A stretch of DNA of 64,000 bases from Candidatus Latescibacterota bacterium (GCA_965207885.1 OZ242311.1:2592001-2656000); one strand, 5' to 3'; positions 1,080 to 42,285 are shown, numbered from the stretch's first letter. The notes: generated by a model not told the origin, from the letters alone. Program-made: numbers and translations.

Positions 1080-1105
1080 CAGTTGAATAAACACTGTTGT
1101 TATGC
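1080..1105 (-). other. attC-like left half-site (R'' GCATAAC)
   Basis: GCATAAC-AACAG-TGTTT about 12 nt after the S66 stop; no right arm visible. Confidence 0.45.
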
Positions 1106-1117
1106 GTTGTGGGCTTC

Positions 1118-2185
1118 TCAATCAGGTTCGACTGCATTCTCCAAAATGGTAAACTTGCGCCAATCAGAGTCGATTTCTGCTTGAATTCCATACGGAAGAA
1201 CGAACATCGGATCTGTATGCCCGAAATCCATCTGCGTAATTATGGGGAGCGAAGTCAATCCTTCCTCGTCAGCGACTATCTGAAGTATGGCGTCGTCATA
1301 AGCATGAAACGAATCAGGCGACAACTCGTGGCCACCTGGTCTTCCAAAGAGAATCCCACTCAATGATGGAAGAATATCCATCGCAGCAAGAGACCGGAAA
1401 AACCTGGTTACCGTACTTGGCGGCGGTGTTTCTTCAGACGTTTCGATAAAGAGTATCGCGCCTTCCCACACTTCTTTGTTAGGCCAAACGTCTGTACTTC
1501 TTATCCAGTCGAGAACTTCGAGGCAACCACCTATGAGGTGTCCTTCCGTTTGCCCTTCTCCCTGGAGATACTGCCAACCCGCAGAGCCTTGAAGGATCCT
1601 CTTTCTTTTTTGATTCGCAGGATTTGCCCAGTCAAGACGTTCGACGGTCCAGCCATCTCGATTCTCCGGTATTTCACCAATATTTCCAGAATCAAATAAG
1701 GTCCGTCTAACGGAGTTCACCATGTAGGGAAACAACCCACCGTTCTCGGCAAATCCTGCCATAATTGCTGGACCATAAAAGGAGACAATGCCCGCCTTTA
1801 GGCACGCAAAGTGGGAAACGGTCGTATCGGAATATCCCACGAAGGGCTTCGGATTCTTCCTGATAAGATCAAGGTCTAAGTGACGAAGAATTCTAATCGA
1901 GTCATCGCCGCCAATAGTCGATATAATTCCTTTGATTTCTGAGTTTGAAAAGGCTTCCATCAAGTCATCCGCACGCGCTTTTGGATTCTCAGAGAGCCAT
2001 TTTGGCTCTTTGAGTGTATGAGGCATCTCGATCACGATCAGGCCAAATGCTTCTTCCAGTTGCTTTTTTCCAGCTTCATATCGATGTGGAATTAGCCCCG
2101 GTCCACCCCATGACAGAGATACAGTGGCTACCTTATCTCCCTCTTGAAGCTTTGGTGGTTTAGTAAGCGATAGTTTCATTATCAA
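1118..2185 (-). CDS. S66 peptidase (LD-carboxypeptidase/MccF-like)
   Basis: IGGDDS, GYSDTT catalytic Ser, IETSE, DFGHTDP. Confidence 0.92.
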   Translation of the reverse strand: MIMKLSLTKPPKLQEGDKVATVSLSWGGPGLIPHRYEAGKKQLEEAFGLIVIEMPHTLKEPKWLSENPKARADDLMEAFSNSEIKGIISTIGGDDSIRILRHLDLDLIRKNPKPFVGYSDTTVSHFACLKAGIVSFYGPAIMAGFAENGGLFPYMVNSVRRTLFDSGNIGEIPENRDGWTVERLDWANPANQKRKRILQGSAGWQYLQGEGQTEGHLIGGCLEVLDWIRSTDVWPNKEVWEGAILFIETSEETPPPSTVTRFFRSLAAMDILPSLSGILFGRPGGHELSPDSFHAYDDAILQIVADEEGLTSLPIITQMDFGHTDPMFVLPYGIQAEIDSDWRKFTILENAVEPD

Positions 2186-2212
2186 GTCTGTTTAGTTTTT
2201 GTGGGCGATTGC

Positions 2213-2250
2213 CGCTAACGTCTTCCGGTTTGTGAACCCGCTGTTAACGG
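2213..2250 (-). other. attC-like right half-site (core GTTAGCG)
   Basis: Minus strand GGGTTCACAAACCGGAAGAC-GTTAGCG resembles the right arm of the complete site at 5764-5855 (GGGTTCGCAAACCGGCATAAC-GTTATAC). Confidence 0.65.
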
Positions 2251-2266
2251 CGGTCATCCTCAAATG

Positions 2267-2351
2267 ACGTTTGAAGCCTTTGAAAGGCCTTAAGAGTTGA
2301 CGGATCAGTGATTATTTCCCTTGCGGCTTCAATAGTCAACCATTTGGCAGC
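2267..2351 (-). pseudogene. 85-bp remnant of the 3' end of the NUDIX gene at 32902-32986
   Basis: Ungapped manual alignment with about 6 mismatches; encodes WLTIEAAR.I.TDPSTLKAFQRLQT. Confidence 0.9.
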
Positions 2352-2361
2352 CTGCTTGCTG

Positions 2362-5090: not shown

Positions 5091-5134
5091 AGGCTTTCAA
5101 TACCTTTTCATCAGGGCCTGTATCCCATAATCGT

Positions 5135-5241
5135 ACCCATCTATTGGTTTATGTGAATGGGGTGTAGTTCTGGGTTACTTTTGCGCCCTTATGTTTTTTA
5201 TCACACAAAAAAAACCTGCGCTCATAACCGTGCTGTTATAC
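5135..5241 (-). other. degenerate attC-like site
   Basis: R'' GCGTATAAC, L'' GGTTATG pairing with L' CATAAACC; core reads GATGGGT instead of GTT. Confidence 0.55.
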
Positions 5242-5259
5242 GCTGGCAGAAATTCAACT

Positions 5260-5733
5260 CTACTGGTTTAGCCCATCTATCAATTCCATTCGGATGAAGT
5301 CGAACTCGCCTCCATTTGTCCTATTCATATAGTGTTCAACTTCCCTAAAACCAACTCGTTTATATACCTTGATTGCTCGTTTATTGAAAGCCGCAACATG
5401 AAGTTGGATGGTTTTCGGTGAGAATCGAGATTGTGCAAAAACCAAACCTGCGCGAACAAAATCTGCCCCTAAACCTTTACCCGTTAGATCTGGATGAAGT
5501 CCTAAACCAAAAATCACTACGCCTTCTTTGTTCTGGAACGCAAAGAACCCCACTAATTCGCCTGCGCCATCTCGAACAGCGAACATGGACTCGCCCCGAA
5601 GAGCAGGATTAAGAAGCTCTGCTAAATCTTCGGGATCCGCTTCAGGATCATAAAAGGCGTATTCATCCTCATAATGCCATGAAGCAATTTTCTCAGCATT
5701 TGATTGATCCAATGGTTCAATGTAGAATTGCAT
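5260..5733 (-). CDS. GNAT acetyltransferase in a cassette-like unit
   Basis: LTGKGLG, FNKRAIKVYKRVGF; start MQFYIEP after GGAG. Confidence 0.9.
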   Translation of the reverse strand: MQFYIEPLDQSNAEKIASWHYEDEYAFYDPEADPEDLAELLNPALRGESMFAVRDGAGELVGFFAFQNKEGVVIFGLGLHPDLTGKGLGADFVRAGLVFAQSRFSPKTIQLHVAAFNKRAIKVYKRVGFREVEHYMNRTNGGEFDFIRMELIDGLNQ

Positions 5734-5763
5734 CAGAACAGCTCCATAGATTTTCCTGCTGGC

Positions 5764-5855
5764 GTATAACGTTATGCCGGTTTGCGAACCCACAAAGCGG
5801 GTTGTCGTAGGCCAAGGCGCCACCAGCACCGCAGCGGAACACCGTGTTGTTAGCC
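5764..5855 (-). other. attC-like recombination site, apparently complete (92 bp)
   Basis: R'' GGCTAAC, 5-nt spacer, L'' GGT(G)TT with an extra base opposite L' AAACC, core GTTATAC. Confidence 0.75.
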
Positions 5856-5876
5856 GAAGTCGATCTATTTTCAAAG

Positions 5877-7709: not shown

Positions 7710-8984
7710 CTATTCTGTCACAACCGCTTCAGGTGAGACGCGAACTGATGACAATATCAAGTAGGTAAAAGCCACCATCATTATAGCAGCTGAAATCAAC
7801 AGTGTTGCCTCCCAGCCAAAAGTTTCACCAAGGTAGCCACCTGACAATGCCGCAATCGGAATTATTCCGAATACGACAAGACGCCTGGTGGCATTGATTC
7901 TACCTAACAGTCTATCTGGAGTCACTGCTTGCCTCAGGCTAATCTGGCTTATGCTGAAGAGGGTCAAGGCCAGGCTAAAGACTGCCTGGATAGCAATGAC
8001 GGCTGGGAGCTTCATCCAACCGAAGTGGCCTGCGAAAGGAAGCACGCCCATCGCAATCCCCTCAAGTAGCAACGCAATAATCATCAACCAGCCTGCACCC
8101 ATCCGCTTTGCAAGTGGAACAGCGGATAGGGCCCCGATAATCGAGGCACCTCCTGCAACAGATCCGATGATTCCCAGCCAGATCGGAGTAATGTCCAGGG
8201 TGCGAACAAGAAAAAGTGTCCAAACTGTATGTTGTACAGCACCTGCTGCACTTGCAAGAGCAGTCCCGATAGTCATGGCTCTCAGAATAGGGTGACTGAA
8301 TAGGGTCGATATTCCCTCCTTAATGGCAGCTATCACCCTTTGGTCCATCCTGGTCCTGATATTATCAGATTCATCAAATCGGATCCTCAATAGGAATAGA
8401 CCAGATAAGAAGTACGAGACTGAATCCACAAGTATTGCCAACGGTGCACCGAGAATATCGACAAGGTATCCAGCTGCTCCGGGTCCTGCTACATTCGTTG
8501 TCGAAGTGCTTAGCTGAAGTCGGGCATTCCCTTCGACCAGATCTTCCCGTTTCACGATAGAAGGCAAAAACGATGTTGAGGCAAGGACGTACATCATCGC
8601 GAGTGTACCACTTGTAAAAGCCACAATATATAGCAACTCTATGGATAGCCAGCCAACCAAAGCTGCTGCGGGGACCAGACTTATGACCAATCCTTGTCCG
8701 AACGCACTCGCGACCAGTATGGGCTTTCGTTTGGCCCGATCAATCCAGACGCCAGCCAGGAGAGCGAAGAGCAGTACTGGAAGATGCGTTGCTGCGTTGA
8801 GGAATCCCATTTCCTTCGCGCCAACCTGAAGCGTTATTACTGCAACAAGGGGAAGCGCAAGGTTGGTGACAGAAGAGCCAAGATCCGAAATAGTGACGCC
8901 GCTCCAGAGCTTGGCAAAGTCAGAATTGGAGCGCGCCAGCCGGAAGAGGCCACCCTCAGGTGCTATACCCATTTGCTTACTCAT
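7710..8984 (-). CDS. MFS transporter
   Basis: About 12 hydrophobic segments, GVWIDRAKRK motif A. Confidence 0.9.
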   Translation of the reverse strand: MSKQMGIAPEGGLFRLARSNSDFAKLWSGVTISDLGSSVTNLALPLVAVITLQVGAKEMGFLNAATHLPVLLFALLAGVWIDRAKRKPILVASAFGQGLVISLVPAAALVGWLSIELLYIVAFTSGTLAMMYVLASTSFLPSIVKREDLVEGNARLQLSTSTTNVAGPGAAGYLVDILGAPLAILVDSVSYFLSGLFLLRIRFDESDNIRTRMDQRVIAAIKEGISTLFSHPILRAMTIGTALASAAGAVQHTVWTLFLVRTLDITPIWLGIIGSVAGGASIIGALSAVPLAKRMGAGWLMIIALLLEGIAMGVLPFAGHFGWMKLPAVIAIQAVFSLALTLFSISQISLRQAVTPDRLLGRINATRRLVVFGIIPIAALSGGYLGETFGWEATLLISAAIMMVAFTYLILSSVRVSPEAVVTE

Positions 8985-8989
8985 TTCGT

Positions 8990-9004
8990 ATGGTCGTGTT
9001 ATGT
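8990..9004 (-). other. attC-like left stub (ACATAAC-ACGACC)
   Basis: Same TAACACGACC start as 16593 and 13287; truncated directly before the next ATG. Confidence 0.55.
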
Positions 9005-9017
9005 GTCGTGCGATCCT

Positions 9018-9844: not shown

Positions 9845-9911
9845 CTGTATGCTTTTGTTAGCCGAATGCGGGTTCTAACCAGCCGGTTTCGTGGCTATGA
9901 AAACCATGTCC
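9845..9911 (-). pseudogene. 3' remnant of the methyltransferase at 14199-14246 followed by an attC-like left half (GGCTAAC, 9857-9863)
   Basis: 46/48 identity by eye between 9864-9911 and 14199-14246. Confidence 0.85.
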
Positions 9912-13226: not shown

Positions 13227-13258
13227 AATCGCCCTGTTTTTAGAACGGTTTAGTTAGC

Positions 13259-13293
13259 GTATAACGTCCCCGTAGGGCACGGTCGTGTTATAG
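13259..13293 (-). other. 35-bp miniature attC-like hairpin
   Basis: CTATAAC-ACGA-CCGT-GCCCT-ACGG-GGAC-GTTATAC; upstream stop TAA lies inside R''. Confidence 0.7.
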
Positions 13294-14076
13294 GAGTTTG
13301 TCTTTTTCGGACTCTGAGGACACACTCAAGCGTTTTGCTTGCTCGGCTCGGTAGCGATTGATCCATTGGGCGTTGAGGTCATCAGCCAGACGCCTGTGGC
13401 GTGTCTGAATCTCACGCCCGGATGGTAGCTCTAGCTTGAGAAAGTCAAGGATGCCACAGGTCTCACCGACGGGATCGGCGGCAAGGTCTTCGTACTGCAC
13501 AAGGTAAGGCTGAATACCAACCGAAGCAAACCACACCCGCCATGCCGCATTGTGCTCATTGATCATCTGAACCAACTTGCAGATCTGGTCGAAGTCGAAC
13601 CTGGGTTCCTGTTCTGGCTGTTCCAATTCCGACTGATCGGTCTTGAACCAGATGTTGGTTTGCTCGGCGCGGTGCCAGGACACGGCCTGCGCCAGAACAT
13701 CATCGCGCTGGAGATAGACAAAGCGCGTATGGCCGAACACTCGGTTCAATAGGTCGATATCGCCACCAGTGATAGTTGGATAGACCGCGCCCAACCTGTC
13801 GACCACATAGTCCAAGGTCCCCCACATAATCCTTGCGGCAAACACGCCATTTTGGGTCCTGCCTGCGGCAAGGGCTGCTCGCACATATTCGGAATATTCA
13901 AAGACCTCATCAGACGAGTGGACAATGTTCCATCGGGCGGCCCACATTTGCTCGTCGGGCTGGCGGAAGTATGACTCAGGACGACCCGCGACTTCCGCAG
14001 ACGCCAGCAATCCACACAACAAGGTACTGCCTGTGCGTGGGGTGGTGCAGATCAAGTACGAATCCATGTGTTCCAT
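13288..14076 (-). CDS. Stf0-family sulfotransferase
   Basis: TPRTGSTLL PAPS-binding motif, RPESYF, QAVSW.RA.QT. Confidence 0.92.
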   Translation of the reverse strand: MEHMDSYLICTTPRTGSTLLCGLLASAEVAGRPESYFRQPDEQMWAARWNIVHSSDEVFEYSEYVRAALAAGRTQNGVFAARIMWGTLDYVVDRLGAVYPTITGGDIDLLNRVFGHTRFVYLQRDDVLAQAVSWHRAEQTNIWFKTDQSELEQPEQEPRFDFDQICKLVQMINEHNAAWRVWFASVGIQPYLVQYEDLAADPVGETCGILDFLKLELPSGREIQTRHRRLADDLNAQWINRYRAEQAKRLSVSSESEKDKLL

Positions 14077-14209
14077 AGACTTGTTTTTTTATGTTTTGCT
14101 GTTCAAATGGATTTCGAATCCCCACCAATGTTCTGTCTGCTTGTAGTGCGCTCTCTCGAAGGCATTGACCATCGGAAAATTTGTCGCCGCCGTTGATCGA
14201 ATGCGGGTT

Positions 14210-15013
14210 CTAACCAGCCGGTTTCGTGGCCACGAAAACCATGTCCGTATGCTCAGCGTTCAGGGGCTCGTCCGAGAAGTTACCCTTCACCTCCACGTCG
14301 GCGAATCCCGCCAACTGTAGCATCCAGAGCACCTCATTGCGATGATACCAACGCGTCTGGCCCACATGTACCTCTTCCTCGATAACCTGGTCACCGTCGT
14401 GGACCTCATACCGACGTTCCTGCATCTGGATCTGTTCAACTGGATCCTCTCCCATGTCTCGTAGATATACCAACAATCGTCGGCCGTCTGAGAGTTCCTT
14501 GTTTGATCGCAATGCCCATTCTCCTGGGTAGGTCTTCTCTTCTTCGCTGCCGTAGTAGTTCCGGTTCCCCGGAGAACAGGCGAATACGAGTTGTCCTTTC
14601 GGTTCCAGGTGGGTGAAACAACGTCGCAATGTCTCCAATGCCTCGGTACGATCCATGACACACTCGAAGCTCCCACAGGGGATATAAATAGTACTGTAGC
14701 TATGCGGAACGTCGAATGTCTGCATAGATTGCTCATAAAGGACCGGTTTGACTCCGACACGCTCTGCATCCCGGCGGCACACTGCCAGTTGATCTGATGA
14801 TATGTCTATTCCCTCAACGTCAAGTCCATCCTGCAGATAGGCGATCAACAAGCGACCCGCGCCACACCCTAATTCGAGTGCTTTGCCTGAGTTCTTCACG
14901 ATTATAGAACGATAGAATTCCTGGTCTCTACGGGGGTCGGTGACCGATATTGTGGCCCAATGGACGGACGCCAGGCCGGTGTATAGATCGCGTTCGTCGT
15001 ATCGCTGCTGCAT
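14210..15013 (-). CDS. class I SAM-dependent methyltransferase
   Basis: LELGCGAGR; paralog of 2362-3168. Confidence 0.9.
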   Translation of the reverse strand: MQQRYDERDLYTGLASVHWATISVTDPRRDQEFYRSIIVKNSGKALELGCGAGRLLIAYLQDGLDVEGIDISSDQLAVCRRDAERVGVKPVLYEQSMQTFDVPHSYSTIYIPCGSFECVMDRTEALETLRRCFTHLEPKGQLVFACSPGNRNYYGSEEEKTYPGEWALRSNKELSDGRRLLVYLRDMGEDPVEQIQMQERRYEVHDGDQVIEEEVHVGQTRWYHRNEVLWMLQLAGFADVEVKGNFSDEPLNAEHTDMVFVATKPAG

Positions 15014-16474: not shown

Positions 16475-16579
16475 GATGAACCTCCAGAAGTCTCAGTGAA
16501 ATTCTTTTGGACAGCGCAGGACGCGTCGCCTCCTTCGAGGTGGGGAAAGTCACGGCTTGTGTATAAGGTTCTCGCCGTG

Positions 16580-16599
16580 TGCGCACGGTCGTGTTATGT
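16580..16599 (-). other. attC-like left half-site (ACATAAC-ACGAC-CGTGC)
   Basis: Follows the PhyH stop; same left arm as the 13259-13293 site. Confidence 0.6.
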
Positions 16600-17214
16600 G
16601 GTGTTACGCATCGCTCTGGCTGATTCCCTTCGCCGTCATGAACCGCGGTCGATCCAGGACGTTGAAGCTCCTCGAGTGCAGAGCCGACATGTTCGTGACA
16701 TACGCCTCACCCGGATCCCCTGTCAGTTCCACCACACGCAGAGGATGACCCCAAACGTCGGTGGGTTTTTCCATGAATCGTTGCCTGCGATCCTCGGAGC
16801 CCCTTTTATGAGTTAGATTTCGCAACCAGGTGTGAGAGGCAAAGAACCTTTGCTTTATGTGCTTGACCTTCAGGTCAAGCTGATGCGGGGTGAGCTCGTT
16901 GTAGAACTTGCACACAACGTGGTGTGAACCCTCAACCAGAACCGTGCCTCCGCCTTCCGGATCGACCTTACTCAGAAAGCAGAAAATGAAGATGTCGCGG
17001 AGTTGGTCAACATTGCGAAGCGGGTTTCCGTGCCAGTGCCAGTCGGTTGCGATGTCCCAACTTTCTCGCTGCTGGGGGAAGGTGTACAGCACAATGCCGC
17101 GATCTTTCGGGGGACGCCACCGTCCCTGACCGAGCAACTGATCTACCACTGCTGCAAATTCTGCCGTCATGGCTTCTCGAAAGATGCGAGAGTTTCTCAC
17201 GGATCGGTAGTGTC

Positions 17215-18054: not shown

Positions 18055-18305
18055 ACCTTAAATTTAGCGATTAAGGTGCTGTTTGTCAAGCATTTATGTC
18101 AAACTAAGTGGGAATGGTTGACAGGGTGGGGAAAAACGGTTAATATTGAATAGTTGCAGAGCGCAACGAGCCTGCCGAAAATGAGGTGGGCAAGGAAAAG
18201 GGCGTGTTATGAGCACGCCCCAAAAGAATGCCTTGGCACCAGACACTTAGATTATACTAAATTTGTGTACTGAGGTCAAGTCTTTAGTTAGAGGAGACCT
18301 CTGTC

Positions 18306-18491
18306 ATGGTAAAGTGTCAGCAATGCCCGTATCTTGGCTATTATGTGCTATGCACCAGAATCTGCCCTGAAAGGCAGAATCGGGCCGAACAGCAGAAGAA
18401 GCGTCAGATATTGGTAAAAACCATCAGACCAGCACCAGGCGTCACCTTGGAGGAAATCACGGTCATTGAGGATTATCAGATCCCGCGATAG
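18306..18491 (+). CDS. small hypothetical Cys-rich protein inside the IS
   Basis: GAGGAG RBS; CQQC and CTRIC. Confidence 0.4.
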   Translation: MVKCQQCPYLGYYVLCTRICPERQNRAEQQKKRQILVKTIRPAPGVTLEEITVIEDYQIPR

Positions 18492-18509
18492 CGACTAAAG
18501 CTATGTGGC

Positions 18510-19142: not shown

Positions 19143-19290
19143 TTAAACCTCCTCTGTGTGGTGAGTCGCCACATCCACCTGTAACAGAATTGACACAAAG
19201 CAGGTTTTTACTTACTTTGAAATCCACTCATTTACGAATCAGGTGGATGCAGCGATAAACTTTCAACGGGTGGTTCGCGTGTCTGCCTTT

Positions 19291-19327
19291 GCCGGGAGGC
19301 TCCGCCAGAGTCTTCCGGCTCTTTTTT
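19291..19327 (+). terminator. intrinsic terminator
   Basis: GCCGGGAGGCTC/GAGTCTTCCGGC stem followed by a T run. Confidence 0.6.
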
Positions 19328-19604: not shown

Positions 19605-19621
19605 ATTCCTTGCTCTGATAG

Positions 19622-26376: not shown

Positions 26377-27371
26377 ACCGATTTATTCGAAGATAGCCAA
26401 TCTAACTACCCCACCAAAACGAGTCAAGTCCACTCAGACTTTAACGTTGCTCCGACGACTTTATTCGCTTCACGACGGGAGCTCTCTTCCTTGGAGGATA
26501 ATCTGGGTGCAACCCGGCCATTCGCGGCGTCTGGGGACGGATCGGTCCCCAGTTGATCGCATAGGGGTGATCCTTACAGAGTTGCTCGATCTTTTCCCAG
26601 GCGGCGAGTACGTTCGCCTCTTCCCTTTTGTCTCCGTTCCAATACCGGGTCATTCCAGCGCGAATGTCGATCATGTGGCGGGTGTGATCCAGGCCTATGC
26701 GGACGAAATCGATCCGCGCCCCGAATCGCTCCGGTTCGTCCGTAACCTTGCGTGACGCCTGGTCGAGTAGCGCGTAAGCGCGGTCGAAGAACGCCTTGTC
26801 ATAGACATCCGGGTATGCTCGTTCACTTGCCCAAAAGATGCTGCGCGTCTCCTCCATCAGATTCCAATAGGCCTCGAGTTCCGTGGCTGCTGGGCCGAAT
26901 GCACGTTGATAGTAATTCTGTAGAATCGCCTGCCCATCCTGCGACGGATCCCACAAGAGATGCGCCATGAGATAGTATTGTGGCCCGTGCGTTGCCCAGT
27001 GTTCCCATACCATATCGACAAAGATGCCCATCGCTTTTTCACCGATCAGTTTGAAGTCCTCAATTGCTTGTATGAGAGCCACATCCGGCTGCCCCTGAGG
27101 CCAGCCTGCGGGGTCACCGACATTGGGTCGCCACATCATGTGCTTCGCGACCTTCGACCACGCGATGTATTGCTCTTTGTGTGTGGAACCCCTGGTCGAA
27201 CCACGGTCGATCAGGCCGTCTCGGTTGAGGAAATTCGCCACGCTTGCCACAATGACATTCTCTGCCGGAACTTCGCGAATCGGAGCAGGCCGGGAATGCC
27301 CGTAGGCCAGCATCATGACATAGTAGTCTCGATCCGGATAGCGCTGCTTGAGTAGCCGCGCACATGTGTTA

Positions 27372-28308
27372 GGTAGTGTCTGAAAAGTCGTAAAGTATGT
27401 ATTTTAGTTGCAGCATACGCCCTAAACCAAGGAGTATGATATGCAACGGAGATATGAACTGCGCGACGAGGCTTGGCATCTGATCCAAGACCTGTTCCCA
27501 CCGCCGAAGAAGATGGGTCGTCCCCGTCGGGATGATCGTACATTATTCAACGGGATCTTCTGGATATTGTGTTCAGGTGCAGCTTGGCGCGACCTGCCAG
27601 AACGATATGGTCCTTGGCAGACAGCCTTTGACCGATTCTGCAAATGGAAACAGGATGGCACCTTTGATCGCATTGTAGAAAAGCTACATCTCAAATTGGG
27701 TGAAGATGGTCTTTTAGATTATGCGACCTGGATGATGGATGCAACCCATATTCGAGCCACACAAGCCGCGGCAGGAGCGAAAAAAAAAGGGCAAAAAGGG
27801 TGAAGAAGAGCCCCCAGATCACGCTTTAGGACGCTCTCGTGGCGGTTTGACCACGAAAATCCATCTTCTTTGCGATGCAGTCGGGCATCCTTTAGCAGTG
27901 GATCTTCTCCCTGGTAACCAGTCAGAATCCACACAGGCTGAAAGGCTACTGTCAAAGGTATGCATACCCACCAAACGAGGGCGTCCAAGAAACCGACCCA
28001 AGTATCTGGTAGCTGATAAATCTTATGATGTCTCACGCATCAGAGTCTATCTACGCAAACGGGGTATCAAGGCTGCTATCCCAAACAAGGCGATTCCCAA
28101 AGGCAGAAAACGGCGTAAGAGAGGACCACGGCCTAAGTGTGATAAAAGATTATATGCCAAACGCAATATCGTGGAGCGTCTCTTTGGTTGGCTTAAACAC
28201 TGCCGACGGATTGTGACCCGATTTGAAAAAAAGGCGACTCATTTTCTCACTATGGTCAAGCTGGCCTGTATCAGACAACTCTTCAAAGCTTACTTTTCAG
28301 ACACTACC
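27372..28308 (+). mobile_element. IS5-family insertion sequence (IS427-like), 937 bp
   Basis: 17-bp terminal IR GGTAGTGTCTGAAAAGT, flanked by duplicated TA. Confidence 0.92.
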
Positions 28309-28311
28309 TAG
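27441..28311 (+). CDS. IS5-family transposase in two ORFs, probable -1 frameshift at the A9 run (27780-27788)
   Basis: GAAWRDLPERYGPW, MDAT, GRSRGGLTTKIH, ADKSYD, RNIVERLF..LK..RRI.TRFEK. Confidence 0.92.
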
Positions 28312-29366
28312 CAAACCGGACGTGTCGATCAGATAGTGCGGGCCGTTCCTGCCTGGTCCCTTTCCAGTGAAACGAACGGAGTTCGCCATCCGGATGGTCC
28401 CAGGCGCAACAGGGCTCACAAACACAATGCCCGCTAGCCCAGCCGTCGTTAGGCGACGCATTGAAGACGCGTTGATTTGGGTTTTGTTTTAGTGCTTTCT
28501 CGACATCCGCGAGCCATTGCTGCGGTACCTCCGGATTCGATTGGCAGAGCTTGGCGTATTTGGGTTGTGGAAATCCGCTCCGCGTTCCGTCAGGCTGAAG
28601 GGCGAAGTATTCGGGGTGTGTTTCATGAAATCGCTCCCACCAGTCGCGGAATCCATGCCCCCCTTCCATTTCGAGGGAACCCAACTGCAGCCGTTGACGG
28701 CGTGTCCACTTCTGGGATCGACCGTATGATCCCCTGGGCGCCAGCCTGGAGTAACTGAACAGTCCGGCCCGGAAACGAAGACTGGGATGGTAGCGATAGC
28801 TGAAGGTCGCGAAGCGGATGGATTCCTGCGGGATGATATCCTCGCCGAGATCGCCAGGCCAGAGCCAACGCACGCCGAGTCGATCGTGCAGAAACGTATA
28901 GATCGCATTTACAGTCCCATACTCTTGCTGGATTCCCTCGATCCGTTTCCCGTTGATCTGTGCAATCAGGTGGTTGGGATCCCAACGGTCTCGCCCCGCG
29001 ATTACGAGGTGCTTTTCGCTCGCCGCGATGACGATTTCCTCGGGGTGTTGGAAGTCGAAGTCGATATTTGGAAACAGCGAATCAAGCGCCGGTTGGTAAC
29101 CCACCCAGATGGCCCGATCTGGGAATTGGCGGGGTGGACCGTCGATCCATTCCGGTCGAGTGCCACAGGTTTTCTCGATGTAATCGGCAAGATCAATCGC
29201 GGCTTTGCGCGTGAATGGTGGTGCATCTGGAAAGAGGATCAGCGGCGCCGGTTTGATCCCGGCTTTTTTGTCCACGAGGGTGAACTCGGCGGTATCGGCT
29301 GCTGAAATCGAGGTTAGCACGATGGAAACGGTGCGGAGCAGCTTGATTTTTTTTAACATGTTTTAT

Positions 29367-29475
29367 TCCATTCATATACACTTAATATTTGGTTAGGTTG
29401 AGAATGACTTGCCCTCAGTCTCTTTAAAAGGACTGCTTCAACCTCAACAAATCGGTTCAGTAGCCCGTATTATGC
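29367..29475 (-). repeat. R1 repeat, copy a
   Basis: Matches 34933-35058 and 40471-40537; mosaic of 21183-21230 and 20604-20670. Confidence 0.9.
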
Positions 29476-31514: not shown

Positions 31515-32099
31515 TCATCTCTCCTTTTTATCTGAATCGGCAAGAAAGAACGTTCCCCTCTTTTTGAATCTAAAACTCTCATCGGGTACGACGAACGCCA
31601 GTTTATCACACAAAAAAGAGCCAGACGGAGCTGAATTTTGGAGCCGTACACAAAGCTCAAGGCTCTCGTCTATGGAGATGAACTCAGCAATGGTCATGTG
31701 CGGAGCTATGTTGCGCCTGTGATACGCTTCGCCGGAAAATGCCGATGTACTGTGGAGGATCTGCTTTAAATTATCGATAGGCTCTCGTGGCCTTATCGGA
31801 TACGAGACGCCAGGGTGCCTGGTTGAGGCATGCGGCTTGTCGTAATGAAGCGTGAATGGCTGGACATCCGTAAGGACGTTGTTGATTTCATCGATAAGAT
31901 CAGGTGTCATTTCCCGACCCAAGGGATCTGACAAAGAGATGTGCGTCGGGCAGGAGGCAGCTGAGCGGGGATCATACTTTGCTCGCAAGAGGTCGATATC
32001 CTGAGATACCTCTGGAGGGGGCATGATAAGGATGAGGCCAAATCGGTAGTCGCGTTGCCAATCTTCCCACTTTGATGTGTCTTTTACGTATGGAATCAG
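31515..32099 (-). CDS. 2'-5' RNA ligase-like 2H phosphoesterase, duplicate of 36101-36691 with ATG changed to CTG
   Basis: HISL and HMTI motifs; near-identical DNA to the other copy. Confidence 0.8.
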   Translation of the reverse strand: MIPYVKDTSKWEDWQRDYRFGLILIMPPPEVSQDIDLLRAKYDPRSAASCPTHISLSDPLGREMTPDLIDEINNVLTDVQPFTLHYDKPHASTRHPGVSYPIRPREPIDNLKQILHSTSAFSGEAYHRRNIAPHMTIAEFISIDESLELCVRLQNSAPSGSFLCDKLAFVVPDESFRFKKRGTFFLADSDKKER

Positions 32100-32131
32100 G
32101 AGGAACTCCCACGGGGTGATAGCATCGACGT

Positions 32132-32239
32132 GTTAGCCGTTCGTGACGCGTCTTCTATTTGCGCCGCTGATCAGCAATATACTCACGTAGCTTCTCGATC
32201 GCGGGAGAATCCACATCCCGAAGCGGCATGACGGCTAAC
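32132..32239 (-). pseudogene. emptied copy of the nucleotidyltransferase cassette (both ends and last about 20 codons retained)
   Basis: GTTAGCCGT...DVDSPAIEKLREYIADQRRK*...ACGGCTAAC; matches 36724-36812 and 37343-37362. Confidence 0.88.
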
Positions 32240-32390
32240 GTCTTTGACTTAAGAAAAAAATACCTGGCTTCGGTTTATACCCCATTTTTCGATTTACAGC
32301 AAGTATTCGTTCATTATTGGAATCATTATAAGCTGTAGATCCATTTGTCCCGATGTAAGAGAAATACAGACCGCTCGGGCAACATGCGGT
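32240..32390 (-). pseudogene. fragment X fused to a GNAT-like 3' tail (tail also at 37363-37439)
   Basis: NERILAVNRKMGYKPKPG resembles a GNAT C-terminus; DNA matches 37363-37439. Confidence 0.75.
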
Positions 32391-32880: not shown

Positions 32881-32899
32881 ATAGAAAGGCCATTCTGAA

Positions 32900-33424
32900 T
32901 TACGTTTGGAGCCGTTGAAAGGCTTTAAGAGTTGACGGATCAGTGACTATTTTCCTTGCGGCTTCAATAGTCAACCATTTGGTAGCATAGAATTCCTGTA
33001 GATCAACGTTGAAATTGCTGCCATCTGTAAGAAGCAAATACCAGATGTCATAATGAGACTGACAGGGTTGCACGGGATTTTCTATTGGTGTAATGGTCAA
33101 CAAAAACGGTTGTGGTTCGGATTTAAAAAAGCGCCATATTCCCAATTCTTCACCTATCTCACGGTTCAAAGCTGCCAAAAGCGTCTCGTCTTTATCTACA
33201 TGGCCACCAGGAGAAAGCCAGAGGCCAGACTTTTTATGGTGGATGACAAATACCTTTTTGCTCTGGGAATCATAGGGCAGAAAATAGACACAAAAGTGGG
33301 TCTCCGGATTTTCATCTCGCGTTGGTTTTCCTTCTTTCACTCTTTGTTTATAGCGACTATAGGTTTCCCCACTGTCACATATATCACGGTTGATAACTTT
33401 TGCAATTGATTCTTGTGTTTTCAT
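32900..33424 (-). CDS. NUDIX hydrolase
   Basis: PGGHVDKDE......REIGEELG Nudix box. Confidence 0.92.
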   Translation of the reverse strand: MKTQESIAKVINRDICDSGETYSRYKQRVKEGKPTRDENPETHFCVYFLPYDSQSKKVFVIHHKKSGLWLSPGGHVDKDETLLAALNREIGEELGIWRFFKSEPQPFLLTITPIENPVQPCQSHYDIWYLLLTDGSNFNVDLQEFYATKWLTIEAARKIVTDPSTLKAFQRLQT

Positions 33425-33474
33425 ATTGGAGTTTCCCAGATACTGTTTCTTTAGTTTTGCCTGTTTTGCTGTCT

Positions 33475-34275
33475 TTACTTGGTTATCGACCAGTAGGTAT
33501 TGGTGATATGTGGTGAACCCGCGTAGGGTTTGCCGTCGTGGCTCCCGTATAATTTCCATTGGTCAAATCCGCTCAATCTCAGTAGTAACTGAAATTCTTC
33601 CTTGTGAATCCAGCGAGTCTGCATTGGCACTTTGGCCGTTTCCCCGTCATACTCAAATGTCCAGGTATAGGTTTCCGTCTGCGATGTCAGATCACATATT
33701 TTTGAATAATTAACCTGAATCGGTTTCCCTGTCTCGGGGTGCATGCACTCACCGAACTCCTCCTCTGCTGGCGGGATGTTTTGGTGAAGGAGTATGTCTT
33801 CTGTATAGGAGGGAATGTAGAAGTTCAGGAGTAGGCGTCCTCCTGGCTGCAGGTGCTCATAGACACGTCGAAGGCAGTCTATTTGGCTTTGCTGAGTTGG
33901 CAGCATCATGAAGGAACTGGCAGGTATGAGAACCGCTGCAAATTGGCGGTCGTAGATAAAATTGGCAAGATCCTGTTGTGAGATTCGAGAATCTATATCT
34001 GAAATTCCCAAATTTATTGCTTTGTGTCTGAGCACTTCCAACATGGGGAGCGAAATATCAAACCCAAAGATATCAAACCCATCCAGCAGCAGAGGCAGCA
34101 TTTTACAACCCGTTCCACAGGCAGCCTCCAATATCGCACCGCGCGTGTTCTGCAATTGATTTCGGTAAAAATGTAATTCCCGTTCATTTAGTGCAGAGCG
34201 GCCACCAGTCTCGTTCCATTGGTCATAGATTAGCGCCCACCAATGGGTATCATAGTTACTTCCAGTCTCTTGCAT
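33475..34275 (-). CDS. class I SAM-dependent methyltransferase
   Basis: ILEAACGTG, GFDIS, LQPGGRL. Confidence 0.9.
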   Translation of the reverse strand: MQETGSNYDTHWWALIYDQWNETGGRSALNERELHFYRNQLQNTRGAILEAACGTGCKMLPLLLDGFDIFGFDISLPMLEVLRHKAINLGISDIDSRISQQDLANFIYDRQFAAVLIPASSFMMLPTQQSQIDCLRRVYEHLQPGGRLLLNFYIPSYTEDILLHQNIPPAEEEFGECMHPETGKPIQVNYSKICDLTSQTETYTWTFEYDGETAKVPMQTRWIHKEEFQLLLRLSGFDQWKLYGSHDGKPYAGSPHITNTYWSITK

Positions 34276-34932: not shown

Positions 34933-35058
34933 GAGTTCTCCATTCATATACACTTAATATTTGGTCAGGTTGAGAATGACTTGTCCTCAGTCTCTTTAAA
35001 AGGTCTGCTTCAAGTTTAGGGTATCCTTAACAAATCGGTTCAGTAGTCCGTATCATGC
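34933..35058 (-). repeat. R1 repeat, copy b (longest)
   Basis: Matches copies a and c; also supplies the stop codon of the upstream GNAT. Confidence 0.9.
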
Positions 35059-35591: not shown

Positions 35592-35619
35592 GAGAGATAA
35601 CCTCGTGATTTACCAGATC

Positions 35620-36078
35620 TCATATCCTCTTTTCAAAAAAAACCACATCAAACCCGGATATCCTTTGCCGTTCAATTTCACAATATCCATTCTTTTCATA
35701 TAGTTTGCGAGCCGCAATCTGCTGCACTGTTGTATCCAGGCAGAGTATTTTATAACCCAGATCATTTGCTCTCATCTCAAGTCTATTCAGAATCGTCTGA
35801 CCAAACCCTCGTCTTTGAAAATTGGGATGGACGCGCATTCTTTTAATTTCTGCCTTATCATCTGAAATTCGTTGCAAAGCACCTATTGCAACCAATTTCT
35901 CTTTGCAAAATCCTGTCAAAAACTCGCCTTTGTCAGATAGATATGTCTCTTCAATAGTATGCAGGTCATTGTCCTGAGCGCCGCTACCTGCATTCGCTCC
36001 AACCTGATCCAGTGCTAAGTTGTGTAGATTCCAGACTTCATTGTGGTCAGAAGCCCGATAACGACGAATTTTCAACAT
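35620..36078 (-). CDS. GNAT acetyltransferase
   Basis: AEIKRMRVHPNFQRRGFG, ARKLYEKNGY; AGGGAG RBS. Confidence 0.92.
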   Translation of the reverse strand: MLKIRRYRASDHNEVWNLHNLALDQVGANAGSGAQDNDLHTIEETYLSDKGEFLTGFCKEKLVAIGALQRISDDKAEIKRMRVHPNFQRRGFGQTILNRLEMRANDLGYKILCLDTTVQQIAARKLYEKNGYCEIERQRISGFDVVFFEKRI

Positions 36079-36100: not shown

Positions 36101-36691
36101 CTAAGAAGTACTTGCGTTTTTACCTGAATCGGCAAGAAAGAACGTTCCCCTCTTTTTGAATCTAAAACTCTCATCGGGTACGACGAACGCCAGTTTATCA
36201 CACAAAAAAGAGCCAGACGGAGCTGAATTTTGGAGCCGTACACAAAGCTCAAGGCTCTCGTCTATGGAGATGAACTCAGCAATGGTCATGTGCGGAGCTA
36301 TGTTGCGCCTGTGATACGCTTCGCCGGAAAATGCCGATGTACTGTGGAGGATCTGCTTTAAATTATCGATAGGCTCTCGTGGCCTTATCGGATACGAGAC
36401 GCCAGGGTGCCTGGTTGAGGCATGCGGCTTGTCGTAATGAAGCGTGAATGGCTGGACATCCGTAAGGACGTTGTTGATTTCATCGATAAGATCAGGTGTC
36501 ATTTCCCGACTCAAGGGATCTGACAAAGAGATGTGCGTCGAACAGGAGTCAGCAGAGCGGGGATCATACTTTGCTCGCAAGAGGTCAATCTCATGGGAGA
36601 CTTCTGGAGAGGGCATTATAAGGATGAGGCCAAATCGGTAGTCGCGTTGCCAATCTTCCCACTTTGATGTGTCTTTTACGTATGGAATCAT
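36101..36691 (-). CDS. 2'-5' RNA ligase-like 2H phosphoesterase
   Basis: Two HxS/T motifs (HISL, HMTI). Confidence 0.85.
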   Translation of the reverse strand: MIPYVKDTSKWEDWQRDYRFGLILIMPSPEVSHEIDLLRAKYDPRSADSCSTHISLSDPLSREMTPDLIDEINNVLTDVQPFTLHYDKPHASTRHPGVSYPIRPREPIDNLKQILHSTSAFSGEAYHRRNIAPHMTIAEFISIDESLELCVRLQNSAPSGSFLCDKLAFVVPDESFRFKKRGTFFLADSGKNASTS

Positions 36692-36746
36692 GAGGAACTC
36701 TCACGAGGTGATAGCATTGACGTGTTAGCCGTTCGTGACGTTTCTT

Positions 36747-37304
36747 CTATTTGCGCCGCTGATCAGCAATATACTCATGTAGCTTCTCGATCGCGGGGGA
36801 ATCCACATCCCGCAGAGGTGCACCAGCCGGGTGTTTGTGGAAATTTACCTTTTCGTCCAGTTGGGCTTCAGCGCTGAGGATCGGACAGGTCAGGTCACCC
36901 AGTCGGCCTTCAGGTGCAGAGAAAGCGCCTTGTGGATACGGCCAATCGGTCCACCGGCCAGAGGTAACAATATCTCCCGATTGGGTCTTTTCGAGAAGCC
37001 CAAAACTGACAAACTGATCAAGTTTGTAGAAGCCAATGTGTTCTTCGGGATGCCGTAGCTCCTTGCGACTATACCCCAGGGCTTCGAGGCAGGTGCTTAC
37101 TGTAGGGGCATCTGTTTTCCAAATTGCCCAGTCTATGTCGCTGTGGACCCGCAAGCTTTCGCCTAACAGAAAATCCAAAGCCCACCCACCACCCAACCAG
37201 TGCGGAATAGAACGAGCTGTCAATACCTCATGAATTTCTCTGATCAGCCCAAGCTGGATGGGATTCGGATCTTCCAGACATCCGCGAATTATAATTTTAG
37301 ACAT
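36747..37304 (-). CDS. ANT(2'')/Lnu-like nucleotidyltransferase in a cassette-like unit
   Basis: GGWALDFLLG...RVHSDID; flanked by (A)TTAGCCGT (37356-37362) and ACGGCTAAC (36724-36732). Confidence 0.8.
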   Translation of the reverse strand: MSKIIIRGCLEDPNPIQLGLIREIHEVLTARSIPHWLGGGWALDFLLGESLRVHSDIDWAIWKTDAPTVSTCLEALGYSRKELRHPEEHIGFYKLDQFVSFGLLEKTQSGDIVTSGRWTDWPYPQGAFSAPEGRLGDLTCPILSAEAQLDEKVNFHKHPAGAPLRDVDSPAIEKLHEYIADQRRK

Positions 37305-37323
37305 GGATCAAACTCATAGGAAA

Positions 37324-37353
37324 CATGCCGCTTCAGTGTTCTGAAGCGGCATG
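37324..37353. promoter_or_regulatory. perfect 13-bp hairpin in the cassette leader
   Basis: CATGCCGCTTCAG-TGTT-CTGAAGCGGCATG. Confidence 0.7.
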
Positions 37354-37628
37354 ACGGCTAATGTCTTCGAGTTAAGAAAAAATACTTGGCTTTGGTTTAT
37401 ACCCCATTTTTCGATTTACAGCAAGTATTCGTTCATTATATGAAAAATTACCCATATTAGATTCTCAATAAGGCTTTTGCATCCTCCCATTGAATTTGCA
37501 AATTCGTTCGCTAATGATTCTAAGTAAGGTAGGTATCTCTGAAAGTGATTTGATATGGGATCTGACACACGACAACTCAGGACATGAAGTATGGAACATT
37601 ACTGTCCAACAATGTCTATTCGTCAGAT

Positions 37629-40028: not shown

Positions 40029-40214
40029 TATAGCCTCTTAAAGTTTGACTCGATTTGGTGTGTACCTTAGATCCTATATGAAAGATAAGAAGAAGAGACT
40101 GCGAATACAAACCGATTGGACCATTGAAAGAAAATGATCATTTAATTTGGATTAGATAGCCGACGAAAGTCTATTCTAATTAGTGTAATTAATGGCACTG
40201 GCCCTGCAAACGCC

Positions 40215-40566
40215 GCGGACAATTCGTAGCCTATGTCCCCCCCCCCAGCCCTCAATGCTTTCTGTGCGTATTCCGCAGTCACCAAGTAATACCCCATTTG
40301 AGCGATCCGTGATGGCGAACTGGAACTTGCATCTTGGATTTTCTTTGGACCATGCGATGCACTTATCTACAAATCGGACGCACTCCTCTCTGGTGTAGGC
40401 GGGCCGGTAGTAGTATTCCAGATACTTGGGGTCTCTCCTGTACTCGGCGATGGCGTCCACGTCTTGTTTGGTGAGCTCTCCATTCATATACACTTAATAT
40501 TTGGTCAGGTTGAGAATGACTTGTCCTCAGTCTCTTTTCAAAAAAAATCACATCAAACCCGGATAT
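40215..40566 (-). pseudogene. three-part mosaic: GNAT 35620 tail, R1 copy c, and internal part of GNAT 32413
   Basis: 40531-40566 matches 35628-35662; 40471-40537 is R1; 40215-40478 matches 32585-32848. Confidence 0.9.
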
Positions 40567-40581
40567 CTTCGAAATCGCTTT

Positions 40582-41322
40582 TCAGAGTTTCTTGCCTATC
40601 GCGCAGAAGACATTGTCATAGGATTCGCCCAGATCCGAGGCTCGAAATATTTGGATGTCCTGGAACCCGGCCGCTAAGTACAGGTTCTGGACTTCCTTCT
40701 CGTCAAAATAGTGCCAAAAGACCGGGCCCTCCCCGTCCTCACTCTTGAGAACTAAGTCACCTTCTTCCAGGCCTGCGTTCTGGTCAACTCCCTCGTATCT
40801 CATATCATCGGTAACACGGGGGAGTGTAGAGGCACCATCGTGAACCGAAAGGGACATACGTCCGGCAGAGGTGAGAACTCGAAAGGCTTCGTTTGCGAGG
40901 GTCTTGCGAGCTCGCGCAGTGGGGACGTTGGCGAGAACCTGACTCCATAAAGTAACTATGTCATATGAATCATCCGGTTCTGAAAATATGGCTCCATCAG
41001 TAACTTCAAACTCGACCTGGCTACCGGATTCGATGGCTATACTTCGGGCCGCTGAAATAAGCGTATCGGATATGTCTATTCCCTTCACGCGAAAGCCCAG
41101 ACTTTCAAGGGCAAAGGCTTCACGTCCGGCGCCACATCCTACGACCAGAGCACGGCCGACATCCGGAAAGAATCGGTCAACCATGGCCTGTTCCCATCTG
41201 CGCAGTCCTTCGCTGACCCTCCGTACGTACTTCTCAGTTGCCTGAGCAGTAGAGTAGCTATGTCGAACCTGACGGGCCAAATCACTTTTCTTTTTTAGAT
41301 TCACTTCTTTCGAGCGAGCCAA
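40582..41322 (-). CDS. class I SAM-dependent methyltransferase
   Basis: ALVVGCGAGRE, GIDIS; start uncertain. Confidence 0.85.
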   Translation of the reverse strand: MARSKEVNLKKKSDLARQVRHSYSTAQATEKYVRRVSEGLRRWEQAMVDRFFPDVGRALVVGCGAGREAFALESLGFRVKGIDISDTLISAARSIAIESGSQVEFEVTDGAIFSEPDDSYDIVTLWSQVLANVPTARARKTLANEAFRVLTSAGRMSLSVHDGASTLPRVTDDMRYEGVDQNAGLEEGDLVLKSEDGEGPVFWHYFDEKEVQNLYLAAGFQDIQIFRASDLGESYDNVFCAIGKKL

Positions 41323-42086
41323 ATCTGTTCACCGCCATAAAGATAAGAGCCCCGATGAAAATTTCCATACAATTCCTGAATCTGATATCCACACAATTCT
41401 AATAGATACTGCATTTCGTTCTTATAGATGTGTCGTGTCTTATCGACATTATGAATCCTTGAAATTGTCTCGCCAGATTTGCTAATTTCTTCATAAGTAT
41501 AATGCCATTCTGAAATTTGGGTCTCAAGATCACATTTCCGACCTCCCCAAAGAATAACACGATTTCCCGTCTCTGGATGATTCAACTCTTGTATTTTTTT
41601 TACTGTTGTACCTCCACCAGATGCGGAGACAAGCTCATCCAAACTGGGATCACCATTATGTATTATCAAAAGTCCATTATCTAAAAGATGCTCATTGATG
41701 CATAGAAGAGACTTTCTTTGGTCTTCTGGTGTTAAAATGTGGTGAAAAGCTCTGTAGGGAATCAAGATGGTGTTGAATCGGTTATTTAGCGAAAAATTAC
41801 GCATGTCGCCTGCAACAAGGTTTATACGCTCCTGAACTTCATTACTGAGCTTCGAGACATTTTCTTTCGCTAACTCAAGCATATCAGAAGATGGCTCAAG
41901 CCCAAAAATATCTAAACCGGATTCAGCTATTGGGATCAGCACTCGCCCTGTTCCACATCCGAGCTCCAAAACTGGGCTTCCCTCATTCTGGGTTTCTTGA
42001 ATATAAAATTCTATATCATCTTTCGTTTTCAGTGCGTCTTCTCGAGCATCATAAAGTTTAGCTCTGATACCTTGATAACTTTCCAT
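41301..42086 (-). CDS. class I SAM-dependent methyltransferase (AT-rich)
   Basis: VLELGCGTGR, GDMRNF; a core-like GTTAGCA lies upstream at 42213-42219. Confidence 0.92.
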   Translation of the reverse strand: MESYQGIRAKLYDAREDALKTKDDIEFYIQETQNEGSPVLELGCGTGRVLIPIAESGLDIFGLEPSSDMLELAKENVSKLSNEVQERINLVAGDMRNFSLNNRFNTILIPYRAFHHILTPEDQRKSLLCINEHLLDNGLLIIHNGDPSLDELVSASGGGTTVKKIQELNHPETGNRVILWGGRKCDLETQISEWHYTYEEISKSGETISRIHNVDKTRHIYKNEMQYLLELCGYQIQELYGNFHRGSYLYGGEQIWLARKK

Positions 42087-42285
42087 AAATCCTCCATAAA
42101 ATCACACATTAAGAAAATTGTATAAGATTGAAAATAAAAACTTTACAAGAAATATTGCTTGATGATAAATTGAAAACCAACTATATTCTCTTACATCTCA
42201 TTAGAGATAAACTGCTAACGTTTTGTTTCATGCATTGGCTTAAGAGTCCTCAGCTATTTTAAACCGCTCAAATTGAGGGGGAATC

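Follow-up and report, generated by a model that had tools for sequence, protein, structure and literature searches.

How does an array that looks like the cassettes of an integron come to stand in a genome without an integron integrase? The question is raised by a stretch of 64,000 nucleotides (hereafter the window) at C1:2592001-2656000 of G000, a 6.23-Mb single-contig genome of Candidatus Latescibacterota. Between two conserved flanks, positions 1031 to 43890 of the window hold a hypervariable cassette array of about 45 co-oriented genes; by the open reading frame (ORF) table and Pfam matches, nearly all genes in this interval are on the minus strand, and they are small and accessory. A preliminary description of the window proposed an eroded integron cassette array with relics of attC sites in its spacers. 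In our analysis, the array is very probably an eroded array of integron type. The fuller reading, to which we give a probability of roughly 0.72, is that the interval 1031-43890 holds an orphaned cassette array, now eroding, of an integron-type system whose recombinase would be RecX, our own label for a tyrosine recombinase that adjoins intact arrays in related genomes.

Results

A family of attC-like sites

Within the genome, short motifs of the spacers are nearly confined to the array region. Relatives of the sequence at 5750-5870 occur at other loci in 10 of 20 genomes of the genus, and 11 aligned copies give a consensus of about 97 nucleotides, cTAACAGCACGGTTTGCG ... CGCAAACCGGCgaAACGTTAnac (cTAACA...AACGTTA). 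The family is phylum-wide. Each site runs from R'' (...TAAC) to R' (GTTA...) and contains a covarying stem of 9-11 base pairs and small inner hairpins. The bottom strands of copies from seven relatives fold with z-scores of -1.3 to -4.2 against shuffled sequences. In the clearest fold, a 4-5 base-pair R box (TAAC with GTTA) is followed by an asymmetric spacer, an L stem of 9-11 base pairs, and three small hairpins.

The structure of the family was set by hand from the DNA folds and then checked by pair counts. In the seed alignment, 89.6% of cells are paired under the hand-set structure, compared with 27-40% when the partners are slid. RNAalifold, run on the same alignment, predicts the inner hairpins only, and not the R and L stems. 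When 24 elements are aligned by model R1, a fit that favours the structure, double-sided changes are found in 18 of 30 pairs and in 78 cells, versus 30.5 cells in shuffled and 12-18 in slid controls. Among 95 elements, the R'' 7-mer ends with AAC in 89 and has T at position 4 in 93; the R' 7-mer begins with GTT in 88 and has A at position 4 in 91. An attC site is recognised by R'' (RYYYAAC) and R' (GTTRRRY) cores around an imperfect palindrome that folds when single-stranded, and the elements of the relatives have these features; the full-length copy in the window no longer folds. The elements are spaced by a median of 1053 nucleotides in the arrays. A search of the window against Rfam at gathering thresholds returned nothing, and a repeat search at locus L017 gave chance families only.

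The integron cassette signature

In integrons, the crossover takes place at G|TT of R'. As a result, the first six bases of a cassette are the last six of the R' upstream of it, and an R'' of its own, complementary to that R', closes the cassette. This signature was examined in 95 elements from more than 20 arrays. When R'' is compared with the reverse-complemented R' of the upstream neighbour, at least six of seven positions match in 41 of 46 adjacent pairs (89%), and all seven match in 27 (59%). In the controls, the corresponding values are 20 and 3.5% when all R' are taken all-against-all (8930 pairs), 20 and 5% when R'' is set against the R' of the same element (95 pairs), and 15 and 0% when it is set against the downstream neighbour's R' (46 pairs). 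The signature is present in 12 of 13 adjacent pairs of one genome, G057; G105, G108, G109, G110, and G106 are represented within the pooled count only. Therefore, cassettes entered the intact arrays of the relatives by the G|TT crossover that integrons use, and the sites of this family are integron-type recombination sites. The R'' and R' of one and the same element match at just 4-5 of 7 positions, for which reason an attC scanner that required them to pair was dropped; it had found almost nothing beside the canonical intI genes of G052, G054, and G060, where the wrong side of intI may have been taken.

Three cassettes of the window, all on the minus strand, carry the signature. In a GNAT cassette (5235-5770; probable ORF 5260-5733, Pfam GNAT), the upstream R' GTTATAC and the cassette's own R'' GTATAAC match at 7/7 positions. 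An ANT(2'')-like cassette (36724-37362; ORF 36747-37304, Pfam Aminoglyc_resit) has R' ATTAGCC at 37362-37356 and R'' GGCTAAC at 36730-36724, which match at 6/7, and its left and right arms score 14.5 and 8.9 bits. A truncated duplicate of the ANT cassette (32132-32239) consists of R' GTTAGCC, 95 nucleotides of the 3' end of the gene, and R'' GGCTAAC, matching at 7/7, with arms of 17.8 (left) and 8.1 bits (right).

Site remains in the window

The sites of the window were scored with model R2, built from 95 elements, and with arm matrices built from 24 elements, all of them from other loci and none from the window. Because the arm matrices include the covarying stem, a low arm score means that an arm is unsupported, not that it is refuted. 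R2 has four matches in the window, all on the minus strand and all in spacers. The strongest is a full-length attC-like element at 5761-5859, with R'' GGCTAAC at 5855-5849 and R' GTTATAC at 5770-5764 (78.3 bits, E 4.5e-16; arms 19.1 and 21.2 bits). Its sequence is kept and its fold has decayed, since a z-score of +0.89 is no better than that of shuffled sequences and lies outside the range of the relatives' bottom strands. The preliminary description had called this site complete or nearly so (5764-5855). That holds for its length, which a covariance model free of window sequence supports, and not for its fold.

The other three matches have kept both arms and lost the centre. In the element at 16558-16603 (R1 20.8 bits, E 0.0016; R2 24.1 bits, E 0.0036; arms 17.6 and 14.5 bits), the central 51 model positions are deleted and R' is mutated to CTTATAC. 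The 42-nucleotide element at 13256-13297 (R2 17.4 bits, E 0.14; arms 17.3 and 13.7 bits) has an R'', CTATAAC, that overlaps the stop codon of a sulfotransferase gene, and its R' is GTTATAC. The third, of 44 nucleotides at 2210-2253 (R2 17.2 bits, E 0.16), has a right arm of 13.2 bits and a left arm of 8.6 bits.

Elsewhere on the minus strand, left arms stand alone. The best left arm of the genome (5227-5243, 20.4 bits; R'' GTATAAC at 5241-5235) closes the GNAT cassette; no right arm for it is found within 5110-5179, where the best score is -3.5 bits. A left arm at 8990-9006 (16.2 bits) is fused to the following ORF, 7 nucleotides before its first ATG, beside recurrent homology breakpoints at 8973-8999. 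At 22562-22578, a left arm of 15.4 bits has its core changed from TAAC to TGAC, and no right arm is detected (best -2.1 bits). At the distal array edge, a weak left arm (1091-1107, 10.6 bits) lies beside the left-flank breakpoint cluster 1030-1084. Another (9849-9865, GGCTAAC, 10.4 bits) lies behind a methyltransferase 3' relic homologous to 14198-14248; the region and its homologue share the 12-mer AACCCGCATTCG, of which they are the two copies in the genome (2/2), and matches in G008 overlap.

Genome-wide on the minus strand, 8 of the 33 left arms of at least 14 bits fall inside the array (0.23 expected); of the 23 on the plus strand, none does so. All eight, read against the ORF table, lie 0-29 nucleotides past a stop codon. 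Right arms of at least 12 bits give 5 of 100 on the minus strand (0.69 expected) and 0 of 129 on the plus strand; one of the five, at 29719 inside a gene, is probably a chance match. Single-sequence DNA folding of the claimed sites shows no signal (z-scores -1.7 to +0.9), and taken alone would have argued wrongly against the finding.

These scores, together with the R2 matches, bear out the earlier claims of attC-like relics on the minus strand, which exceed chance, and of left arms outnumbering right arms (eight strong left arms in the array versus five right arms of at least 12 bits). Individual sites fared unevenly. By the arm matrices, the 24 arms that had been proposed divide into 11 strong, 6 weak, and 7 unsupported ones. 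Eight of the 13 left arms score at least 14 bits (5855, 5241, 13293, 8998, 16593, 32132, 36724, and 22576), those at 1099 and 9857 about 10.5 bits, and those at 20426, 15079, and 30253 at most 5 bits. Among the 11 right arms, 5764, 13259, and 2213 score at least 13 bits and 20403, 32233, 37356, and 42213 score 7.9-8.9 bits; 5135, 16033, 26400, and 22516 score at most 6 bits and find no support. Accordingly, the collapsed site at 13259-13293 stands with both arms strong, and the one at 20403-20426 is left with a weak right arm, its left arm being unsupported. The site at 5135-5241, thought complete or nearly so, is a left arm only; the doubly mutated one at 22516-22576 keeps its left arm with the mutated core and loses its right arm. 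Conversely, 16593 and 2213, listed as single halves, belong to collapsed elements with both arms. The R' at 42213 was considered as an attI site and rejected, since other species have not kept it in the orthologous spacer, and no attI-like site is found in the window.

A recombinase beside intact arrays

We searched for integron integrases with the IntI family model TIGR02249, which has a cut-off of 265 bits. The preliminary description had pointed to an intI gene in the genome as a check; none exceeds the cut-off in G000, where the best match reaches 88.6 bits, nor in any of the 21 genomes of the genus. A tblastn search of the window with an IntI and RecX gave no recombinase remnant below E 0.5. 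Without an IntI over the cut-off, the array is not an integron by definition, so the earlier reading as an integron cassette array stands for the covarying sites, the cassette signature, and the visible loss of sites, and falls with regard to the integrase. Canonical IntI over the cut-off is present in 6 of 61 relatives of the wider group, including G023 of the same family. It is found in none of the five genomes with large RecX-adjacent arrays (G105, G106, G108, G109, and G110). Their best TIGR02249 matches are RecX, aligned to model positions 1-179 and 235-315 with the IntI-specific part skipped.

The recX gene was found beside intact elements of G010, and the intact form in G005 encodes 376 residues. 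RecX has Phage_int_SAM_4 and catalytic domains, and some members carry a further domain of about 95 residues at the N terminus. It scores below the cut-offs of all the families compared: 214.2 bits for TIGR02249, 215.7 for XerA_Arch (cut-off 220), 183.9 for XerC (335), and 179.6 for XerD (330). The Pfam catalytic domain spans 161 residues, versus 200 in true IntI, and two IntI-specific insertions, of 31 and 10 residues, are absent from the alignment. The conserved residues of the catalytic domain are present, including R224, K249, H314, R317, H340, and Y349, which correspond to the catalytic columns of the family. In a quick tree of 22 sequences, drawn with midpoint rooting, the two Xer-like proteins of the host split off with support of 100, and RecX groups with IntI; the IntI clade lies beside or within the RecX radiation. 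At a threshold of E <= 1e-40, RecX is found in 33 of the 168 phylum genomes.

Intact arrays are found next to recX. Examples are seven elements in 5.2 kb at L088, 14 elements in G057, and further ones in G005, G032, and G058. At 20 further RecX loci, taken with 20-kb flanks, 14 have model matches within 10 kb; there are 64 matches in 365 kb, and 11 loci have at least three. By coordinates, the arrays start about 1-1.5 kb from recX, which stands at the proximal end in most loci. Single- or few-contig genomes with arrays of 4-14 matches and the signature (G057, G105, G106, G108, G109, and G110) have no IntI over the cut-off. In G057, the interval between recX and the first cassette contains an attI-like GTTACCT that matches the R'' of that cassette at 7/7, a single example. 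recX is divergent from the array, as in canonical integrons, in these six genomes, co-oriented downstream in G005, G010, G021, G031, G045, and L088, convergent in G032, and inside the array in G042. Of 80 metagenome loci that have RecX homologues, many lying on short contigs, six have R2 matches at E <= 0.5, with stems that covary, and one (L146) has a 7/7 chain. The background of the model is low: G000 has three strong matches genome-wide among the 150 of 1933 candidates that were scored. On the basis of position only, we infer that RecX is probably the integrase of these arrays.

Among the scored candidates of G000, two attC-like elements are intact (C1:2905596-2905691 and C1:2944386-2944482; 76 and 84 bits). 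Each is solitary; they are 39 kb from one another and about 250-290 kb beyond the downstream end of the window. A RecX remnant of 33 residues (C1:2909768-2909866) lies about 254 kb past the end of the window and 4 kb from an intact element. RecX remnants are also found next to the arrays of other species.

Several further loci concern RecX-like genes or arrays. In G052, a RecX-like gene lies about 400 nucleotides downstream of intI both at L007 (C1:2492064-2496008, intI whole) and at C1:2158606-2160412, where intI is partial (model positions 120-315), and a third RecX-like copy with the same score lies elsewhere. At L136 (G042:C1:2062001-2082000), a RecX-like gene with six copies in the genome lies amid 13 attC-like elements, all on one strand. 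The attC-like array at L078 (G004:C1:2211001-2231000) holds APH(3')-like, APH(2'')-like, HigA-type antitoxin, MFS efflux, and Ham1-like genes, and no RecX is found within the 20 kb fetched.

Re-assortment and erosion of the array

Window positions 1-45000 were compared with the homologous regions of 13 genomes of the same genus. Module order and content differ in all 13 arrays, gene-sized modules match at 80-99% identity, and every homology match has the same orientation. The array is thus made of gene-sized, co-oriented modules that are re-assorted between the species of the genus. The sulfatase/BNR block is one such module, with different neighbours in other species, and is no late, non-cassette joiner, contrary to the earlier view of the larger sulfatase genes. 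The plus-strand Laminin_G gene at 42286-43896 behaves as a module as well. Of 44 clusters of recurrent homology breakpoints, 37 lie no more than 40 nucleotides from an ORF end and 5 deep within ORFs. The module junctions carry short overlaps of a few bases.

The loss of a site is directly visible at a NUDIX gene. A 3' relic of it (2263-2351, minus strand, 92% identical to 32898-32986) is followed by the collapsed site 2210-2253, whereas the full gene at 32900-33559 has only a 19-nucleotide spacer after its stop codon. In G006, homology to the downstream sequence of the relic type continues behind the NUDIX module to window position 2229, and an 87-nucleotide element (36 bits) lies directly upstream of the LD-carboxypeptidase module, where the window has the stub 2210-2253. 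Since the sequence between differs, we make no claim that the G006 element and the stub are one site. Decayed orthologous sites are common to the window, G003, and G010; therefore, much of the decay predates this species.

Two insertions interrupt the array. An element of 2.8 kb occupies 17203-19973, where relatives join 17207 to 19972; it is not at the same place in relatives whose arrays span the site. Three more copies of it in G000 (C1:304525, 630637, and 2367914) are 100% identical over 2766-2771 bp. One of its ORFs has a weak IS1 DDE match, and the others have no Pfam family. The second, an IS5-family insertion sequence (IS) with a Pfam DDE_Tnp_1 match (27373-28308, plus strand), splits a DUF4838 gene into 26441-27316 and 28304-29359; relatives join 27372 to 28309, and the gene is whole in other species that have both halves. 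The same IS is also seen beside attC-like elements in G010 (L033). In a segmental duplication within the array, 36117-36723 recurs as 31518-32131, comprising a 2'-5' RNA ligase gene and the site arm downstream of it; the upstream spacer is also duplicated (32246-32327 and 37367-37439), and one ANT(2'') copy is truncated.

Flanks, cargo, and neighbourhood

The array makes up 0.7% of the genome. Its left flank is a HAD hydrolase gene (424-1029, minus strand), of which a homologue at 86.5-95% identity always marks the array edge in 12 of the 13 arrays; none is seen in the stretch fetched from the thirteenth genome, G009. The right flank is an alpha/beta hydrolase gene (43890-44894, minus strand), assigned by Pfam and the genus comparison. 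Homology stops at 1030-1072 on the left and starts at 43881-43895 on the right, the latter seen in G002 and G014. By Pfam matches, the cargo includes many GNAT acetyltransferases and SAM methyltransferases, a VOC protein, a NUDIX hydrolase, a sulfotransferase, ANT(2'')-like and APH-like genes, two MFS transporters, two 2'-5' RNA ligase genes, and the BNR/sulfatase block.

A leader of about 60 nucleotides (AAAGAGACTGAGGRCAAGTCATTCTCAACCTRACCAAATATTAAGTGTATATGAATGG) immediately precedes the start codons of several cassettes that are unrelated to one another (29397-29475, 34969-35039, and 40494-40581, with partial matches near 20599-20670 and 35592-35667), and is present in the arrays of other species too. 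It could be a shared promoter, a 5' untranslated region, or another recombination substrate. Past the array, 44915-56729 is a dense minus-strand cluster in which Pfam finds four sulfatase, three PhyH-type dioxygenase, PLP decarboxylase, and DegT-type aminotransferase genes. It has no strong site matches and looks like ordinary polysaccharide or sulfated-substrate metabolism.

Alternative explanations

Could the motifs be chance matches of short 7-mers in spacers? Seven of the 24 claimed arms are at background, and 42213 is not conserved, as noted above. Yet eight strong left arms where 0.23 are expected, with none on the other strand, and a 78-bit match to an independent model already refute chance for the core set of sites, and we give this explanation next to no weight. 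A genomic island whose small accessory genes are shuffled by homologous or illegitimate recombination, with the TAAC/GTTA elements as repetitive extragenic palindromic (REP)-like repeats or terminators, would account for other observations: 34 of the 44 breakpoint clusters have no recognisable site, most boundaries fall at ORF ends, the junctions overlap by a few bases, the leader-like repeat recurs in several spacers, and the two intact elements of G000 are solitary. Because a recognisable relic lies at only 10 of the 44 clusters, attC x attC exchange does not explain most of the present junctions. However, neither REPs nor terminators explain the complementarity between R'' and the upstream R' in 41 of 46 pairs, and the spacing of about 1 kb, the invariant cores flanking covarying stems, and the strict strand bias also argue against such an island, which we consider improbable.

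A more serious alternative, although still an unlikely one, is that canonical IntI built the arrays and has since been lost or acts in trans, in which case the window would be an ordinary cluster of attC sites lacking an integron integrase (CALIN) and RecX a hitch-hiking mobile tyrosine recombinase. Homing to attC arrays is known from IS1111-attC elements and group IIC introns. Canonical IntI does exist in the phylum, even in the same family, and half of the known CALINs are in genomes without IntI, and most lack a nearby intI pseudogene (PMC4889954). Several properties of RecX weigh on this side and against our reading. Its orientation relative to the array is variable, and one copy lies inside an array (L136). 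RecX-like genes are multi-copy in G042 (six) and G052 (seven), and two in G052 stand directly behind intI, one of these intI genes whole and one partial; such copies would suit a mobile element that targets arrays. Other points count against our reading. Defective recX copies occur in G057 (frameshift), G109 (in-frame stop), and G010 (internal deletion), and fragments in G000, G006, G020, and L088. Model matches are absent at 6 of the 20 RecX loci, and also in G028 and G030. Further such points are the 4/7 match of the LD-carboxypeptidase cassette of the window, the lineage specificity of the site models, and the origin of these genomes from metagenome assemblies. Against a lost IntI, arrays with the signature occur in single- or few-contig genomes without IntI over the cut-off, RecX stands at the proximal array end in most loci, and G057 has an attI-like core. 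Moreover, 53 kb beside three canonical intI genes contain no model match, possibly because the wrong side of intI was taken. We prefer the reading with RecX as the recombinase of an integron-type system.

Discussion

If RecX is indeed the cognate recombinase, the history of the array may be outlined as follows. An IntI-like enzyme without the IntI-specific domain, encoded at the head of intact arrays, would act on the folded sites. With recX reduced to a 33-residue remnant in G000, the cassettes of the window would no longer be excisable in cis. The sites would then have been lost through internal deletions, the loss of an arm, and point changes, and IS insertions, deletions, and duplications would still reshape the array. 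The earlier idea that cassettes are locked in by the loss of their sites is plausible. The evidence also tips, by a modest measure, towards a broader proposal: Latescibacterota, and some uncultured organisms represented by metagenome contigs, may carry true integron-type platforms (attI, cassettes, and G|TT crossover) with a domain-less sister or precursor of IntI.

The window resembles known systems in part. CALINs are abundant for reasons that are unexplained, (Cury et al. 2016, PMC4889954), and are called from at least two attC sites within 4 kb and no intI nearby. The window shares with them co-oriented cassettes, attC-type sites, the lack of an integrase nearby, an internal IS, and a cargo of accessory or unknown genes. 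However, most of its sites are half-sites or collapsed stubs, so the standard criterion may not hold: the R2 matches at 2210 and 5761 are 3.5 kb apart and those at 13256 and 16558 are 3.3 kb apart, and three of the four have E of only 0.004-0.16. In addition, the remnant of a recombinase other than IntI lies elsewhere in G000. Sedentary chromosomal integrons with inactivated intI are reported for Xanthomonas (10.1101/2025.06.18.660453). They reportedly have in common with the present arrays a homogeneous, lineage-specific attC family, arrays at a fixed site that differ from species to species, and an integrase gene that often decays. They differ in that the recombinase here is without the IntI-specific domain and not fixed in orientation to the array, an asymmetric spacer (about 1 nucleotide versus about 5) separates the R and L boxes, and the centre of the site is branched into three small hairpins.

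RecX itself shares the Phage_int_SAM_4 and catalytic domains with IntI and is closer to it than to the two Xer-like recombinases of the host, but it scores below the IntI cut-off and has neither of the two insertions. It has the fold and length class of XerC, XerD, and XerA, and falls just under the cut-off of XerA_Arch; it does not reach the cut-offs of XerC and XerD, is distinct from the two Xer-like genes of the host genome, and adjoins cassette arrays instead of standing alone. The additional domain around patch III is regarded as a defining and necessary feature of IntI (PMC9668308, citing Messier and Roy 2001). In a limited literature set, we found no paper on integrons of Latescibacterota or on platforms with an integrase lacking the additional domain.

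Integron integrases are defined, and searched for, by one extra domain, and arrays without an integrase are common and unexplained. Across a whole phylum, arrays with the exact cassette signature of integrons stand beside a related recombinase without that domain, and the large-array genomes tested have no canonical IntI. If the broader proposal is true, the recombination of folded attC sites does not require the additional domain, and part of the long-standing excess of CALINs without an integrase would have an unrecognised one close by. If the link to RecX is functional, it would change what counts as an integron, provide a natural experiment on the recognition of folded attC sites, and give searches for hidden integrons in uncultured phyla a new key. 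The window would then show the aftermath of the loss of the recombinase, in which sites collapse or lose an arm and the genes stay.

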